Shown one piece after another: positions 33,199-39,410 of a stretch of 64,000 nucleotides of DNA. Numbering within the stretch: the stretch's first letter is position 1; every line of letters begins with the position of its first letter. Under the pieces are notes generated by a model. That model was not told the DNA's origin and ran no database searches. It was given only the letters and a program-made list of their open reading frames with translations. The stretch comes from an uncultured Gammaproteobacteria bacterium. GTDB taxonomy: Bacteria; Pseudomonadota; Gammaproteobacteria; JABCZS01. The position numbers were made by a program, and so were the translations under genes. The stretch covers positions 192,001 to 256,000 of the forward strand of contig CAWKDC010000001.1 in assembly GCA_963848305.1 (NCBI GenBank), read 5' to 3'.

Positions 33199-33833
33199 AT
33201 GGGCGAATTGCATTATGCAGCTGCCGCAGGGTCAGCCGAATCAGTCCGATTATTGCTTTCCTTAGGCGCTGATCCACACGCTAAAATTATACCTAGTGCA
33301 AATGAATCGGTTTATCTAAGGTTAAGAAAGCAACCAGCACTACCAGCTCTAAGAACCATCAATGGGTCGGTACCATTTTATGGATGGCACCTGAATTGAT
33401 ATCGACAGATCCCAAGTACAGCCAACAATCAGACATTTTTGCACTAGCAATCACCTTTTGGGAGATAGCCTCAAGCAAGATACCATTCGAAGAGGCCGAT
33501 AATTCAGTTGTGCCAGTCCTCATCGCCAGAGGAGATCGCGAAAAAATTCCTGCTGACTGCCCCCCAGAGTTTGGTCGCATTATCACACGTTGCTGGGCAC
33601 AAAAAGCGAGTGATCGTCTCGCGCTGGACAACGTAATTACTGAATTGAAACAAATGCATGGTGTTTCATCTGCTCCTGCAGCCGCATCATTGCCTGCCTA
33701 TCGAAACAATGTTGCACCTGCATCATCGGGTGCTTATACGCAACCGCAGCAACGGCCTCAGTATCAAGTAAATAATGTAAATTCTTTAACATCGACAACA
33801 CCCAACCCATTTACACAATTAAATAGGAAATGA
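33199..33833 (+). pseudogene. ankyrin-kinase gene with large internal deletion
   Basis: ELHYAAAAGSAESVRLLLSLGAD ankyrin joined out of frame at ~33308 to a kinase C-lobe (GLSKVKK...VGTILWMAPEL...SDIFALAITFWE) paralogous to 37100-37677. Confidence 0.8.
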
Positions 33834-33837
33834 AATT

Positions 33838-35097
33838 ATGCTAAATCCAAATCGAGGATTAAATAATGTCTCGCAGATACCTGCAGAGCTTTCTGCCCTG
33901 CGTGTTAGAGCTCATTCTGGAGATAAAGAAGCGCAGTTTCAGTGGGGCGTAGAATATCATACCGGGAAAAATATACCGCAGGATTTGAATAAGGCTGCAC
34001 ATTGGTATTTGCAATCTGCAAACCAAGAGCATCGTAGCGCACAATTTAATTTAGGATTTCTTTATCAGAATTTGAATCTTCCACAATATTTGCCTTCAGC
34101 CATCTATTGGTATAAAAAAGCAGCAGCAAATGGCAGTACGCGCGCTCAGAAAGCATTGGAGCAATTGGATGAAGTCGAAAAACCCAAACAAGAAAATCCA
34201 GCGGTCGCTCCTGTTGCAAACGCTAATAACAATAATAATAAAGTAACTGAACCTAAAAAAACTTTAGTGCGCCCACCTGTAATCCCCTACAAAGCATTAA
34301 CCATTGGTAAAAAATTGGGCGAAGGTGCTTTTGGTGTTGTGTATCAAGCAAAGCGCGGATTAGAAGATGTCGTGGTGAAACAATTAAAATTACAGCCAAA
34401 TCAAGGATTATCTCCTGAGGCATTGGTTGATTTTGAAAATGAAGCCGGCGTTCTGGAGAAATTGCGCTCTCAATTCATTATCGCAATACGAGGTATTTGC
34501 ACACAACCCTATTGCATGGTCTTAGAATTTGCCTCGGGAGGTTCATTAGATGATTTGTTAAGGAAAAACACTTCATTAGATTGGGGTAAAAAATTAACCA
34601 TTGCATCGGATATTGGTAAAGGCTTAGCTTTTTTGCACAGCCAAGATCCTATTATATTACATCGAGATTTGAAAAGTGAAAATATATTACTCGATGAAAA
34701 TGGGCGTGCAAAATTAGGGGATTTTGGTTTGGCTAAATTAAAATATAAAACGCAAGTCACCACAGGAGCCGCAGGCACCATAACCCATATTGCACCAGAG
34801 TTGTTCACGGCGCGCCCACATCATAGCGAGGCAAGCGATGTGTACGCCTACGGGATCGTTTTATGTGAAATTGCCACGCGTCAAAAGCCCTTTGCGGGCA
34901 TACATCCTTATGATATTGCGCCCAAAGTCCTCCAAGGGGTACGTCCAGTCTTCGAACCAGAAAAAACAAACCCGCGCACCGCACCCGAGTATGCAGTATT
35001 GGTTGTGCATGCTTGGTCTCAAAAAGCTGAAAGCCGTCCCAAAATTACCGAGATTGTTCAGGGGATTGAAGAGCAGAAGAAGAAATTAGGTAAATAA
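33838..35097 (+). CDS. Sel1-repeat + eukaryote-like (TKL-type) protein kinase
   Basis: two Sel1 repeats; GEGAFG, VVVK, HRDLKSEN, DFG, APE, SDVY intact. Confidence 0.9.
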   Translation: MLNPNRGLNNVSQIPAELSALRVRAHSGDKEAQFQWGVEYHTGKNIPQDLNKAAHWYLQSANQEHRSAQFNLGFLYQNLNLPQYLPSAIYWYKKAAANGSTRAQKALEQLDEVEKPKQENPAVAPVANANNNNNKVTEPKKTLVRPPVIPYKALTIGKKLGEGAFGVVYQAKRGLEDVVVKQLKLQPNQGLSPEALVDFENEAGVLEKLRSQFIIAIRGICTQPYCMVLEFASGGSLDDLLRKNTSLDWGKKLTIASDIGKGLAFLHSQDPIILHRDLKSENILLDENGRAKLGDFGLAKLKYKTQVTTGAAGTITHIAPELFTARPHHSEASDVYAYGIVLCEIATRQKPFAGIHPYDIAPKVLQGVRPVFEPEKTNPRTAPEYAVLVVHAWSQKAESRPKITEIVQGIEEQKKKLGK

Positions 35098-37677: not shown

Positions 37678-37679
37678 AA

Positions 37680-39410
37680 ATGTTAGAAGTACTTGTTCAT
37701 ATTTATAACATAGCCTATCGGATTTGCAATCAAGTTGATCTTGCTCATGCAAATAAAAATCAATGCAAACGACTTGGTCTGCGCGTCAAATTAACAGTGG
37801 ATACGGTTCGTGATCTTGAAAAGAAATATGATGATGTACAGTATCAACCTGCTTTAACGAACTTGTGCGTTACATTGCAGCATTGTGATGAATTTATTGG
37901 CCAGTTTGGGCATAAAAATTGGGTGCAACGAGTGTTTAAAGCAGGAAATGATAAACTTGAATTTGAAGCAATTAATTTGAGTTTGCTTCAAGCAAATCAA
38001 TTGCTCAGTTTGGGTATCAACATTCAACAGGTGTTTGATCATGAACAAGATAAATCTGACCAGGCGGCAGATCAAGCCGCTATCATGGAAATGCTGTTCG
38101 TTATTGAAACGGCAGTTAATGCTAATCATAAAGAGCAAATGGCCGCCCATAAAGCATTACAAGAAATCATTGCGCAGCAATTTGTTTCTATGCGGGAAAG
38201 TTTTGAAGTCAAAATGGGCCGCCGTATGCAACCCAAATATAATATAGATCCTAAGCTGCATATATCTGTAAGTGATATTGATATATTAGAGAAAATTGCC
38301 GAAGGTTCATTGGGATTTATTTATAAAGGAACTTGGAATAATCGCACTGTTGCTGTTAAAACTTTAAAACTTCAATCAGCAGAAGGGGAAAAAGCACTTG
38401 TGCGTGAAGCGCAAATCATGAGCTCACTTATTCATCCAAATATTACACCTTTTTATGGCGTTTGTTTGGAAGCAGGACGCGTGTGTTTGATAATGGCGCA
38501 TCTTCAGAATGGTTCGCTATATGATTTTTTACTGAAAAAAAAATTAAGCTTAACCGAGCAACATACTATTGCGCTAGGGATCGTTGAGGGATTGGCTTAC
38601 CTGCATCAACAAAATAAATTGCATCGTGATTTAAAAAGTAAGAATGTGCTATTAAATGATAAATTGCAACCTAAATTACATAACTTTGGCTTGGCAAAAG
38701 TATTGGGTAATACCGTCATCAATAGTGCCCCAATCCAAGATACATTTTCTGAATGGGCAGCGCCAGAAACATTGCGGAACATAGGTCATTATACTGTAGC
38801 TAGTGATGTCTATAGCCTGGGTGTTGTTTTATGGGAAGTGTTTACCCAGAAAAGACCCCATTCACAACTATCGCAAATGCGCACAGATATGCCAAGCACT
38901 GTCCCGTCTGTGTATGTGAAAATTATTTCAGCTTGTTTGGATCAAGAACCAAATAAACGGCCAGTTTTAACAGACATAATGCAACAATTAAAAACTTATG
39001 AAACCCATCATGAGATTGATTCACGAAACATTTATTCTCAAGCACAAGAACAGGAGAGCAAGAAAAATTTTTTCGTAGCTTTCGAATTGTATAAACAATC
39101 AGCAGAGTTAGGGTATAAACGCGGATACACTAATGTTGGAACATTTTATCTAACAGGACGTGGTGGAGTTGTCCCTGTAGACAAGCCACAAGCTTACACT
39201 TGGTTTTTGCAAGGTGCAAAAGCAGGGCATGCACGTGCGCAATATAATGCGGCTGAAATGTTAAATACTGGTGATGGAATACCCAAAGATCAGCGAGCAG
39301 CACGACAATGGTATCGAACTGCTGCGCGCCAACAATATGAAATTGCTAAAATTCGGTGCGCAGAACTCAATATTGATACTGCACGTAGTCGTAGCGTTTC
39401 TCCAAAATAG
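37680..39410 (+). CDS. MLKL-like helical N-terminal domain + (pseudo)kinase + Sel1 repeats
   Basis: N-terminus NKNQCKRLGLRV...FIGQFGHKNWVQRVFKAGNDKLEF resembles the MLKL 4-helix bundle; kinase has AEGSLG, VAVK, HRDLKSKN, NFG; C-terminal Sel1 repeats. Confidence 0.85.
   Translation: MLEVLVHIYNIAYRICNQVDLAHANKNQCKRLGLRVKLTVDTVRDLEKKYDDVQYQPALTNLCVTLQHCDEFIGQFGHKNWVQRVFKAGNDKLEFEAINLSLLQANQLLSLGINIQQVFDHEQDKSDQAADQAAIMEMLFVIETAVNANHKEQMAAHKALQEIIAQQFVSMRESFEVKMGRRMQPKYNIDPKLHISVSDIDILEKIAEGSLGFIYKGTWNNRTVAVKTLKLQSAEGEKALVREAQIMSSLIHPNITPFYGVCLEAGRVCLIMAHLQNGSLYDFLLKKKLSLTEQHTIALGIVEGLAYLHQQNKLHRDLKSKNVLLNDKLQPKLHNFGLAKVLGNTVINSAPIQDTFSEWAAPETLRNIGHYTVASDVYSLGVVLWEVFTQKRPHSQLSQMRTDMPSTVPSVYVKIISACLDQEPNKRPVLTDIMQQLKTYETHHEIDSRNIYSQAQEQESKKNFFVAFELYKQSAELGYKRGYTNVGTFYLTGRGGVVPVDKPQAYTWFLQGAKAGHARAQYNAAEMLNTGDGIPKDQRAARQWYRTAARQQYEIAKIRCAELNIDTARSRSVSPK

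Follow-up and report, generated by a model that had tools for sequence, protein, structure and literature searches.

Does a cluster of kinase genes on a bacterial contig encode a counterpart of animal necroptosis, in which the kinase RIPK3 acts on the pseudokinase executioner MLKL? This question is raised by positions 33199-39410 of a 64,000-nucleotide stretch of DNA (referred to here as the window; G000:C1:192001-256000, i.e. positions 192,001 to 256,000 of contig CAWKDC010000001.1) from the genome of an uncultured gammaproteobacterium (1.89 Mb, four contigs, 92% complete). Four co-oriented genes are located there on the plus strand, separated by 4, 20 and 2 bp (Table 1): (i) the remnant of a kinase gene, (ii) and (iii) two genes encoding TKL-type kinases with repeat arrays (genes 2 and 3), and (iv) a gene encoding an MLKL-like protein (gene 4). 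A first-pass annotation, made from the nucleotide sequence, had proposed that they form a cascade of sensor kinases and executioner, an idea that appears to be the best available reading of the genetics. Below, M designates the MLKL-like gene and P the gene of a repeat-bearing TKL kinase. The recurring pairing of such kinases with MLKL-like proteins points to a putative kinase-triggered killing switch, of a kind not described before in bacteria.

The product of gene 4 (576 amino acids; aa) is, judging from its sequence and modelled structure, a true full-length homologue of MLKL, with the four-helix bundle, the brace and the kinase-like domain colinear with those of the mouse protein. An MLKL_N domain (PF22215; 61.7 bits, with the cut-off at 27) is followed in it by a kinase domain and a pair of Sel1 repeats. 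Positions 3-459 of a profile of 28 family members (A4) aligned in a single stretch with residues 5-464 of mouse MLKL (4btf_A; E 9e-76), and the same profile aligned likewise with residues 2-469 of 6lk5_A. The AlphaFold2 model of the complete protein (mean predicted local distance difference test score, pLDDT, 84.7) has helices at residues 2-21, 26-47, 53-74 and 81-86, which are followed by a long helix (88-178), a kinase fold and a helical-repeat C-terminus. Foldseek searches with the full-length model returned kinase domains only. The head (residues 1-180) was folded and searched alone (AlphaFold2 pLDDT 92), and its nine highest-ranking matches in the PDB were structures of the human MLKL executioner domain (6zvo, 6zz1, 6ux8, 2msv, 6d74 and 6zle), with template-modelling (TM) scores of 0.61-0.69, root-mean-square deviations (rmsd) of 2.7-3.0 Å and 24-25% identity; the best of them was 6zvo_A (E 3.9e-4, TM 0.66, rmsd 3.0 over 116 columns). 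The aligner VIA, which is independent of Foldseek, placed 6ux8_A first (Z 12.8) and 4btf_A second (Z 12.3), with unrelated helical bundles close at Z 11-12, AtMLKL3 (6ka4_A) at Z 11.5 and the CC-R domain of NRG1.1 at Z 10.8. The nearest ESM Atlas clusters to the head were all eukaryotic (oomycete, plant and fungal), with scores of 0.75-0.85, which lie below 0.9 and make these matches leads only.

The domain profile, the alignment with 4btf_A and both structural comparisons bear out the first-pass description of the last gene as MLKL-like. The term pseudokinase, used there for its second domain, may hold insofar as DFG is replaced by NFG, but this is the only change of its kind: the VAVK Lys, the alphaC Glu, the HRD Asp and catalytic Asn (HRDLKSKN) and the APE motif are all retained. 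The Gly-loop is degenerate (AEGSLG).

The two upstream kinases had been described as intact and of TKL type, and both points were confirmed by the motifs in their translations and by their nearest solved relatives. The quoted motifs HRDLKSEN/GTITHIAPE and HRDIKSPN/GTALWMAPE are present in the products of genes 2 and 3, respectively, the complete set in the latter being GRGGFG, VAVK, HRDIKSPN, DFG and APE. The implied likeness to RIPK kinases was not supported by the comparison. No RIPK occurs in the best 60 PDB matches of a P profile, which are CTR1, B-Raf, TAK1, ZAK, EGFR and JAK-type chains, and a regular-expression search for the RHIM core, which we take to be I/V-Q-I/V/L/C-G, found it in one of 55 M and P proteins, in the brace of an M protein, and in none of the P tails. 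The P kinases are probably Raf/MLK/TAK1-like and not specifically RIPK-like.

The genomic context of M was surveyed, with Pfam and local hidden Markov models, for 25 M-family genes from 16 genomes (genomes, loci and single proteins are cited by our G, L and numbered P handles). Outside this survey were L002 (G011:C142, a short contig), three places in G057 and a weak match in G044 (E 7.8e-4). A linked or fused P kinase accompanies 23 of the 25 M genes, a co-occurrence that is far from chance; the recurrence of the pair in other bacteria, a point raised by the first-pass annotation, was thereby found. In 21 of the 25 cases the P kinase is encoded on the same strand, directly adjoining M or within the same tight cluster, mostly upstream and in four loci downstream (L012, L039, L041 and L045). 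Two loci encode fusions, with the architectures MLKL_N-kinase-Sel1x16-kinase (L050, 1550 aa) and MLKL_N-kinase-kinase-Ank (L054, 1432 aa). The exceptions to linkage are a decayed copy beside mutS and an IS66 transposase gene (L038) and a locus cut by a contig end (L042). The repeat arrays of the P proteins vary between Sel1, ankyrin (Ank), leucine-rich (LRR), WD40, eukaryote-type SH3_1 and TPR. Mobile genes lie directly beside many cassettes; they encode transposases of the PDDEXK_2 (L033, L035, L036 and L045), IS66 (L038) and Y2_Tnp (L046) types, integrases (L041) and a group II intron reverse transcriptase (L045). In three loci of G208, a PDDEXK_2 transposase gene directly follows M.

A library-wide search with a profile of the head recovered 2419 clusters at E <= 1e-3, and 136 clusters (50% identity) at E <= 1e-30. 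MLKL_N-kinase-Sel1 is the architecture of 92 of the best 149 representatives; the C-terminal Sel1 pair, absent from animal MLKL, is a hallmark of the bacterial family. Three representatives are of the form MLKL_N-kinase-kinase; one of these, P0204, matches the L054 protein in length and domain positions. TPR-MLKL_N-kinase-Sel1 and MLKL_N-kinase-NHL were also found among the relatives. All full-length matches from a pattern scan of 185,579 species genomes, with patterns placed within the kinase domain (alignment A3) and hence not sampling head-only relatives, came from uncultured Gammaproteobacteria. Their labels are Coxiellaceae, Francisellaceae, Pseudomonadota/proteobacterium, 'Gammaproteobacteria bacterium' and, in one case, simply 'bacterium'. 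Up to eight MLKL_N matches, in seven genes, were counted in G208. Genes with MLKL_N alone lie beside a NACHT-HEAT gene in this genome (L035:2370-6606) and overlap the start of an NB-ARC gene in G100 (L043:2-2784), which are NLR-like arrangements in Dot/Icm-bearing bacteria.

The kinase domains were placed in a quick IQ-TREE phylogeny (LG+G4; 94 rows, 264 columns), with support from the Shimodaira-Hasegawa-like approximate likelihood-ratio test (SH-aLRT) only; P0025 and P0007, which have no full domain, were dropped. The 25 bacterial M domains form one group (SH-aLRT 97). Another (SH-aLRT 97) unites 24 of the 25 P domains with two fused P domains, 17 other gammaproteobacterial kinases and one fungal sequence. 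Eukaryotic TKL kinases, including those linked to MLKL_N, are located outside both groups, and nine ordinary bacterial kinases are split from M, P and the eukaryotic TKL kinases at SH-aLRT 100. Genome for genome, the sub-groups of M have their counterparts among those of P (the G208 set; L010/L013/L014; L044/L045/L050/L054), and therefore cassettes duplicate and move as units.

This tree bears on the explanation that there is no cascade at all, and that the locus is a tandem array of paralogous eukaryote-like kinase effectors whose adjacency reflects local duplication. All four genes do encode TKL-type kinase domains, one of them being a decayed duplicate of another, and Legionellales are rich in such kinases, also away from M, with the 17 further gammaproteobacterial kinases falling into the P clade. 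However, M and P belong to two old and separate clades, so that neighbouring genes are not recent mutual duplicates. The two P kinases of the window are placed in different P sub-groups, gene 2 next to the partner kinases of relatives in the same order, and therefore they are not recent duplicates of each other either. Adjacency of M and P extends over at least 16 genomes of several families, in either order and with fusion at least twice, and catalytic decay is confined to one side of the pair. We consider a mere array of paralogues improbable.

The one-sidedness of this decay emerged from an alignment of 49 kinase domains, 27 of the P type (25 separate and two fused) and 22 of the M type. 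The VAIK Lys, alphaC Glu, HRD Asp, catalytic Asn, DFG Asp and APE are present in all 27 P domains. Ten of the 22 M domains, including that of the window, lack at least one of the HRD Asp, the Asn and the DFG Asp; the Lys and the APE Glu are retained in all 22, and the full APE motif and the alphaC Glu in 21 each. The difference in catalytic-residue loss has a Fisher p of 8e-5, calculated on relatives that are not independent. In a wider set of 104 head-linked kinase domains, all three catalytic residues occur in 59 and at least one is missing in 45, while the second (P-type) domains of the three MLKL_N-kinase-kinase proteins have canonical motifs.

Frequent decay to a pseudokinase would also suit a binding role. 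M and P might be host-directed decoys or interceptors, which mimic and jam a kinase/MLKL-like or TIR immune pathway of a protist; MLKL-like decoys of poxviruses sequester RIPK3 in a comparable way. The eukaryotic type of the family, with its eukaryotic ESM Atlas neighbours as leads, agrees with such a role, as does the existence of MLKL_N-kinase proteins in eukaryotes (rotifer P0042, and pelagophyte P0025 with LRR_6). However, the known viral decoys lack, to our knowledge, the four-helix bundle, whereas here the head, modelled with high confidence, is the best-conserved identifier of the family. A decoy would also have no need for a dedicated, always-active partner kinase or for fusion to one, and we find this role improbable.

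Low-complexity tails with short repeated motifs follow the kinase domain of many P proteins (window 37468-37674 and 33663-33830; L040:6202-6336; 3′ ends of the P genes of L044, L035 and L036). The pattern [SGTA]-G-[YF] occurs in 13 of 27 P proteins, with long SGYG/GGYG arrays in G208; in L040 there are two near-identical units of 'YQSGGPxFNxLxSRL', and in L044 'GYQxNLxS' is present twice. The tails of gene 3 and of the remnant have 'YQNN..YQVNN..NPFxQxNRK' in common, and M proteins of the same genomes often terminate in residues resembling the P tails. These motifs may serve in docking, as phosphosites, as a secretion signal or in assembly.

The explanation that we tentatively favour is that of a mobile, kinase-gated executioner cassette, delivered by the Dot/Icm secretion system into a protist host. 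The locus would be one copy of a modular two-part cassette circulating among Dot/Icm-bearing intracellular Gammaproteobacteria. Its predicted parts are (i) P, one or more proteins with a variable protein-binding repeat array and an always-intact TKL kinase, and (ii) M, composed of an MLKL four-helix-bundle head, a brace, a kinase-like domain, in many cases decayed to a pseudokinase, and two Sel1 repeats. As in MLKL, the kinase-like domain and the brace of M would restrain the membrane-active head. Upon binding of a cue by its repeats, P would phosphorylate the kinase-like domain of M or dock on it, and the head, once released, would permeabilise a membrane. Both proteins may be Dot/Icm substrates acting in the protist, e.g. 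by lysing the vacuole or the host cell so that the bacteria can leave, and P would then be a regulator or timer supplied with the cassette (a 'metaeffector'). The direct basis of this explanation consists of homology, linkage, fusion, catalytic asymmetry, the two clades and taxonomic restriction.

The restriction was observed in samples of genomes of increasing breadth. PF22215 is present in 5 of 12 genomes of the GTDB order of the window's genome, and in 9 of 400 sampled across the class; a sample of 400 other genomes from the phylum yielded no match. DotH/IcmK was found in 90 genomes of the class sample; all nine MLKL_N carriers are among these, and there are none among the 310 DotH/IcmK-negative genomes (hypergeometric p 5e-6 for eight carriers, the window's genome excluded, a value confounded by shared ancestry). 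All five carrier genomes tested, that of the window included, contain both DotI/IcmL and DotH/IcmK. We favour a host-directed over an anti-phage role because of this restriction to Dot/Icm-bearing genomes, together with the effector-like neighbourhood. The eukaryote-type SH3_1, WD40, Ank and RNI-LRR domains of P and the OTU, patatin and RNaseIII-Ank neighbours may also be counted for host direction, as may the MLKL-domain protein that the available passages of a recent preprint (cited below) include among effectors predicted by S4TE.

The same genome carries a sister cassette outside the window (G000:C1:398005-401224, minus strand; L123:2006-5225). Its first gene encodes a Sel1-kinase of 445 aa whose motifs are canonical. 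The second, 10 bp further on, encodes a protein of 625 aa that combines a kinase-like domain, with the motifs HRH and DLG, and the C-terminal Sel1 module also found in M. The N-terminus of the 625-aa protein gave a sub-threshold match to TIR_2 (E 7.7e-4), and TIR_2 was detected in seven of the eight members of its family that were scanned (best E 9e-8). One homologue carries the name 'protein kinase [Legionellales bacterium]' in its source. Because this TIR-like cassette is located in the window's own genome, a single chassis of head, (pseudo)kinase and Sel1 encoded after a repeat-kinase appears to bear two different death-type heads in one genome. We count this exchange of heads in favour of the proposed modular cassette.

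Interchangeable heads are also a feature of bacterial immunity. In an abortive-infection or other self-directed immune cassette, P would respond to a cytoplasmic cue from a phage or mobile element by phosphorylating M, whose bundle or TIR head would kill the bacterium, as a bacterial counterpart of necroptosis. The grammar of conflict systems is visible in the variable repeat sensors on a constant enzyme and in the constant chassis with swapped MLKL_N or TIR heads. MLKL_N adjoins NACHT-HEAT and NB-ARC genes, operons are tight, fusions occur, and MLKL_N genes are multiplied in G208; PDDEXK_2, IS66 and Y2 transposases and integrases flank the cassettes, whose presence within the genus is patchy, and the kinase domains score well against the kinase models of MADS MAD6 and PD-T4-6. 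However, the PADLOC matches in the window (mad6, PD-T4-6, MkoA, Stk2 and PglW) are to the generic kinase domain only, with none of the partner genes of those systems, and the NCBIfam MAD6 scores are 110-126 bits against a cut-off of 460. Defence systems are usually widespread among free-living bacteria, whereas MLKL_N is absent from the DotH-negative class genomes and from the phylum sample. The window has no recognisable defence island, its genes being housekeeping and effector-like, and eukaryote-type SH3_1 domains would be unusual in phage sensors. We regard such an immune cassette as the foremost, though rather unlikely, alternative. A native form of kinase-gated regulated cell death, with interchangeable MLKL and TIR heads and directed, within the bacterial cell itself, at phages or other invaders as a prokaryotic counterpart of necroptosis, is likewise unlikely.

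Several observations weigh against the host-directed cassette that we favour. (i) All catalytic residues are retained in 12 of the 22 M kinase domains. In many lineages M may thus be active as a kinase, and the picture of a substrate pseudokinase may be too simple. (ii) In L015 and L040 the M-family protein is encoded after a P kinase although it has no kinase domain; P may therefore have a target other than the kinase-like domain of M. (iii) The variable sensor, constant executioner, swapped heads, NACHT/NB-ARC neighbours and flanking transposases may equally be read as the signature of a bacterial immune system. (iv) The C-terminal tails are mildly enriched in polar residues (fraction of S, T, N, Q, G and P 0.37 in M and 0.47 in P, background 0.32), which demonstrates no secretion signal. 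(v) Two genomes of the same genus are without the module. (vi) Carriers share both ancestry and niche, which confounds the restriction to Dot/Icm-bearing genomes. (vii) The dotH/icmK gene of the window's own genome is split into two frames, which meet near a G run (G000:C1:920666-921368).

The ORFs (open reading frames) of the locus, their order and their spacing agree with the first-pass annotation, as judged from the ORF coordinates. The remnant at the head of the cluster had been described as that of an Ank-kinase gene; the Ank repeat and the kinase C-lobe were both found, and the correction concerns its origin. It is probably what a deletion has left of an old paralogue of gene 3, and not of gene 2, because residues 429-591 of gene 3 match its C-lobe and tail at 57% identity (163 aa). 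The frameshift noted in gene 3 at 35928 was right to within a few bases; it adjoins short G and C runs and could be an assembly error. A scan of 32900-39700 for promoters and terminators gave no signal above chance (promoter-like sites: 14, with 15.9 expected; terminator-like sites: 9, with 7.2 expected). From their spacing and orientation, we infer that the four genes form an operon and are co-transcribed.

Table 1. Features of the four-gene locus (positions in the window).
Feature	Position	Strand	Description
Remnant gene, part 1	33199..33399	+	66-aa ORF with one ankyrin repeat (Pfam Ank, E 1.5e-5)
Remnant gene, part 2	33384..33833	+	149-aa ORF; kinase C-lobe from the APE motif on, and Q/N/S-rich tail; Pfam kinase profile positions 171-258 only
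Gene 2 (P kinase 1)	33838..35097	+	419 aa; two Sel1 repeats, then TKL-type kinase (Pfam kinase, E 3e-48)
Gene 3 (P kinase 2), first frame	35118..35969	+	283-aa ORF; RNI-type LRRs (LRR_6, E 4e-43, 7 stretches)
Gene 3, frame change of one base	35929..35933 (approximate)	+	Within an LRR unit; two reading frames
Gene 3 (P kinase 2), second frame	35902..37677	+	591-aa ORF; LRR_6, Ank_2 and kinase (E 7e-63), with Q/N-rich C-terminal tail
Gene 4 (M protein), four-helix bundle and brace	37680..38219	+	Residues 1-180; PF22215, E 7e-17; helix 4 continues into long brace helix
Gene 4, kinase-like domain	38262..39008	+	Residues about 195-443; Pfam kinase, E 1.5e-51; M clade, SH-aLRT 97
Gene 4, C-terminal Sel1 pair and tail	39042..39410	+	Pfam Sel1, E 2e-17

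Upstream of the cluster, the window contains housekeeping genes (purF, plsX, fab genes, murJ, ileS, lspA, ispH and ddl), followed by a variable stretch with genes for an IS200-type transposase and for patatin-cNMP, OTU, RNaseIII-Ank and CaMKII-AD proteins. In G002, of the same genus, the flanking ddl and RNaseIII-Ank genes are conserved, with other genes and no P-type kinase between them. The first-pass annotation had named eukaryotic contamination as a possible source of the region; it is ruled out by the bacterial housekeeping genes on the contig (ddl, murJ, ileS, lspA, ispH, plsX and fab) and by recurrence in many bacterial metagenome-assembled genomes, and is further contradicted by relatives in closed bacterial chromosomes.

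Four proteins of the window are of an unusual or effector-like type: (i) a 545-aa protein combining ribonuclease III with ankyrin repeats (41573-43210; 50% identity in G002), an unusual combination and a possible effector, (ii) a 1094-aa fusion of a ParA-type AAA_31 domain and an OTU cysteine protease (45732-49016), (iii) a cNMP-binding patatin phospholipase with an NTE P-loop domain (23936-25717) and (iv) a CaMKII association-domain protein (45134-45631), the last three being eukaryote- or effector-like. The cluster is flanked on the minus strand by genes for a 176-aa cysteine-rich protein with a hydrophobic N-terminus (32472-33002) and a 314-aa serine-rich protein with SPSSSS repeats (40496-41440), neither of which has a Pfam match. 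Between the cluster and the latter, an LPG_synthase_C (lysyl-phosphatidylglycerol synthase C-terminal) gene is split into two ORFs in different frames (39480-40489), with profile positions 162-191 missing. The frame changes in this gene, in gene 3 and in dotH suggest indel errors of the assembly or ongoing gene decay, which in the case of dotH would be the decay of a secretion system.

The accessible literature was searched for bacterial or prokaryotic MLKL, MLKL_N, PF22215 and necroptosis with abortive infection, and no account of a bacterial cassette was found. The first-pass statement that no such bacterial system has been described stands to that extent, but a 2026 preprint on a Legionellales symbiont of Anaeramoeba (bioRxiv 10.64898/2026.04.11.717937) has MLKL, NACHT and SEL1 domain labels among S4TE-predicted effector candidates. 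In its available passages the MLKL label stands in a figure legend without comment, and the words necroptosis and cell death are absent. A specialist review of 2022 (PMC9612521) states, in its accessible part, that bacterial genomes had yielded no clear homologue of MLKL. In the excerpts available of a paper on bacterial pseudokinases (PMC12599244), MLKL appears in the reference list only, and the listing in the available part of an atlas of L. pneumophila effectors (PMC11696984) has no occurrence of 'MLKL'.

The head profile defines a sizeable bacterial family (the 136 clusters mentioned above), whose members are colinear with the whole of MLKL and whose genes are linked to those of dedicated, intact kinases. 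If the proposed cascade is correct, this would be a compact system of two or three genes for the release of a four-helix-bundle executioner by a kinase, with natural variants that are active-kinase, pseudokinase, kinase-less, fused and, in one case, TIR-headed. If the cassette is host-directed, it would provide intracellular bacteria with a novel means of lysing their protist hosts or manipulating them. Were it self-directed, necroptosis would join gasdermins, NLRs, TIR and cGAS-like proteins as a cell-death pathway common to bacterial and eukaryotic immunity. Native bacterial cell death of this type would mean that the kinase-to-MLKL logic works in bacteria, and was possibly exchanged as a unit between bacteria and eukaryotes.

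Comparison with known systems places the cassette among several of them. The kinase-based anti-phage systems Stk2, MADS (MAD6), PD-T4-6 and BREX (PglW) resemble it in their Ser/Thr kinase domains; the match to them is confined to the generic kinase domain, with no partner genes and with scores far below the curated cut-offs. As in the LegK family of Dot/Icm effectors, eukaryote-type kinases are combined with Ank, LRR or Sel1 repeats in Dot/Icm bacteria, but the similarity to LegK1 is weak and sub-threshold (NCBIfam model, 40 bits against a cut-off of 550), and the kinases are not members of that family. Legionella metaeffectors are encoded in adjacent effector-regulator gene pairs, and M and P, being adjacent, may regulate each other in a similar manner. 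With fungal HeLo/HELL and bacterial NLR two-gene death clusters, the cassette shares the clustering of a sensor with an executioner and, in two relatives, the position of MLKL_N beside NACHT or NB-ARC; unlike in those clusters, the transducer is a protein kinase and not a STAND NTPase or an amyloid motif. The kinship of the MLKL, HeLo and RPW8 heads is stated in a review of fungal cell death (PMC12881547), in the available passages of which bacterial MLKL cassettes are not mentioned.

Among eukaryotes, and eukaryote-like sequences, MLKL_N-kinase proteins include P0042 (rotifer, Rotaria) with close relatives on long contigs, P0025 (pelagophyte, Aureoumbra) with C-terminal LRR_6, P0010-P0015, P0044 and P0046. 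In such proteins of protists and rotifers, and in plant MLKLs, an MLKL_N head is joined to a TKL-type kinase or pseudokinase, as it is in M; unlike M, the eukaryotic proteins lack a Sel1 tail and a known operon-linked partner kinase, and their kinase domains are placed outside the M clade of the bacteria. The RIPK3-MLKL pair differs from the cassette in that (i) the bacterial partners are encoded in an operon or a fusion, (ii) P is probably Raf/MLK/TAK1-like, with N-terminal repeat arrays and no RHIM, and (iii) M has a C-terminal Sel1 pair, and over half of the M domains look catalytically competent. As in the RIPK3-MLKL pair, the executioner of the bacterial cassette is colinear with the full length of MLKL, repeatedly loses catalytic residues yet keeps the Lys of the ATP site, and is paired with an intact TKL kinase.

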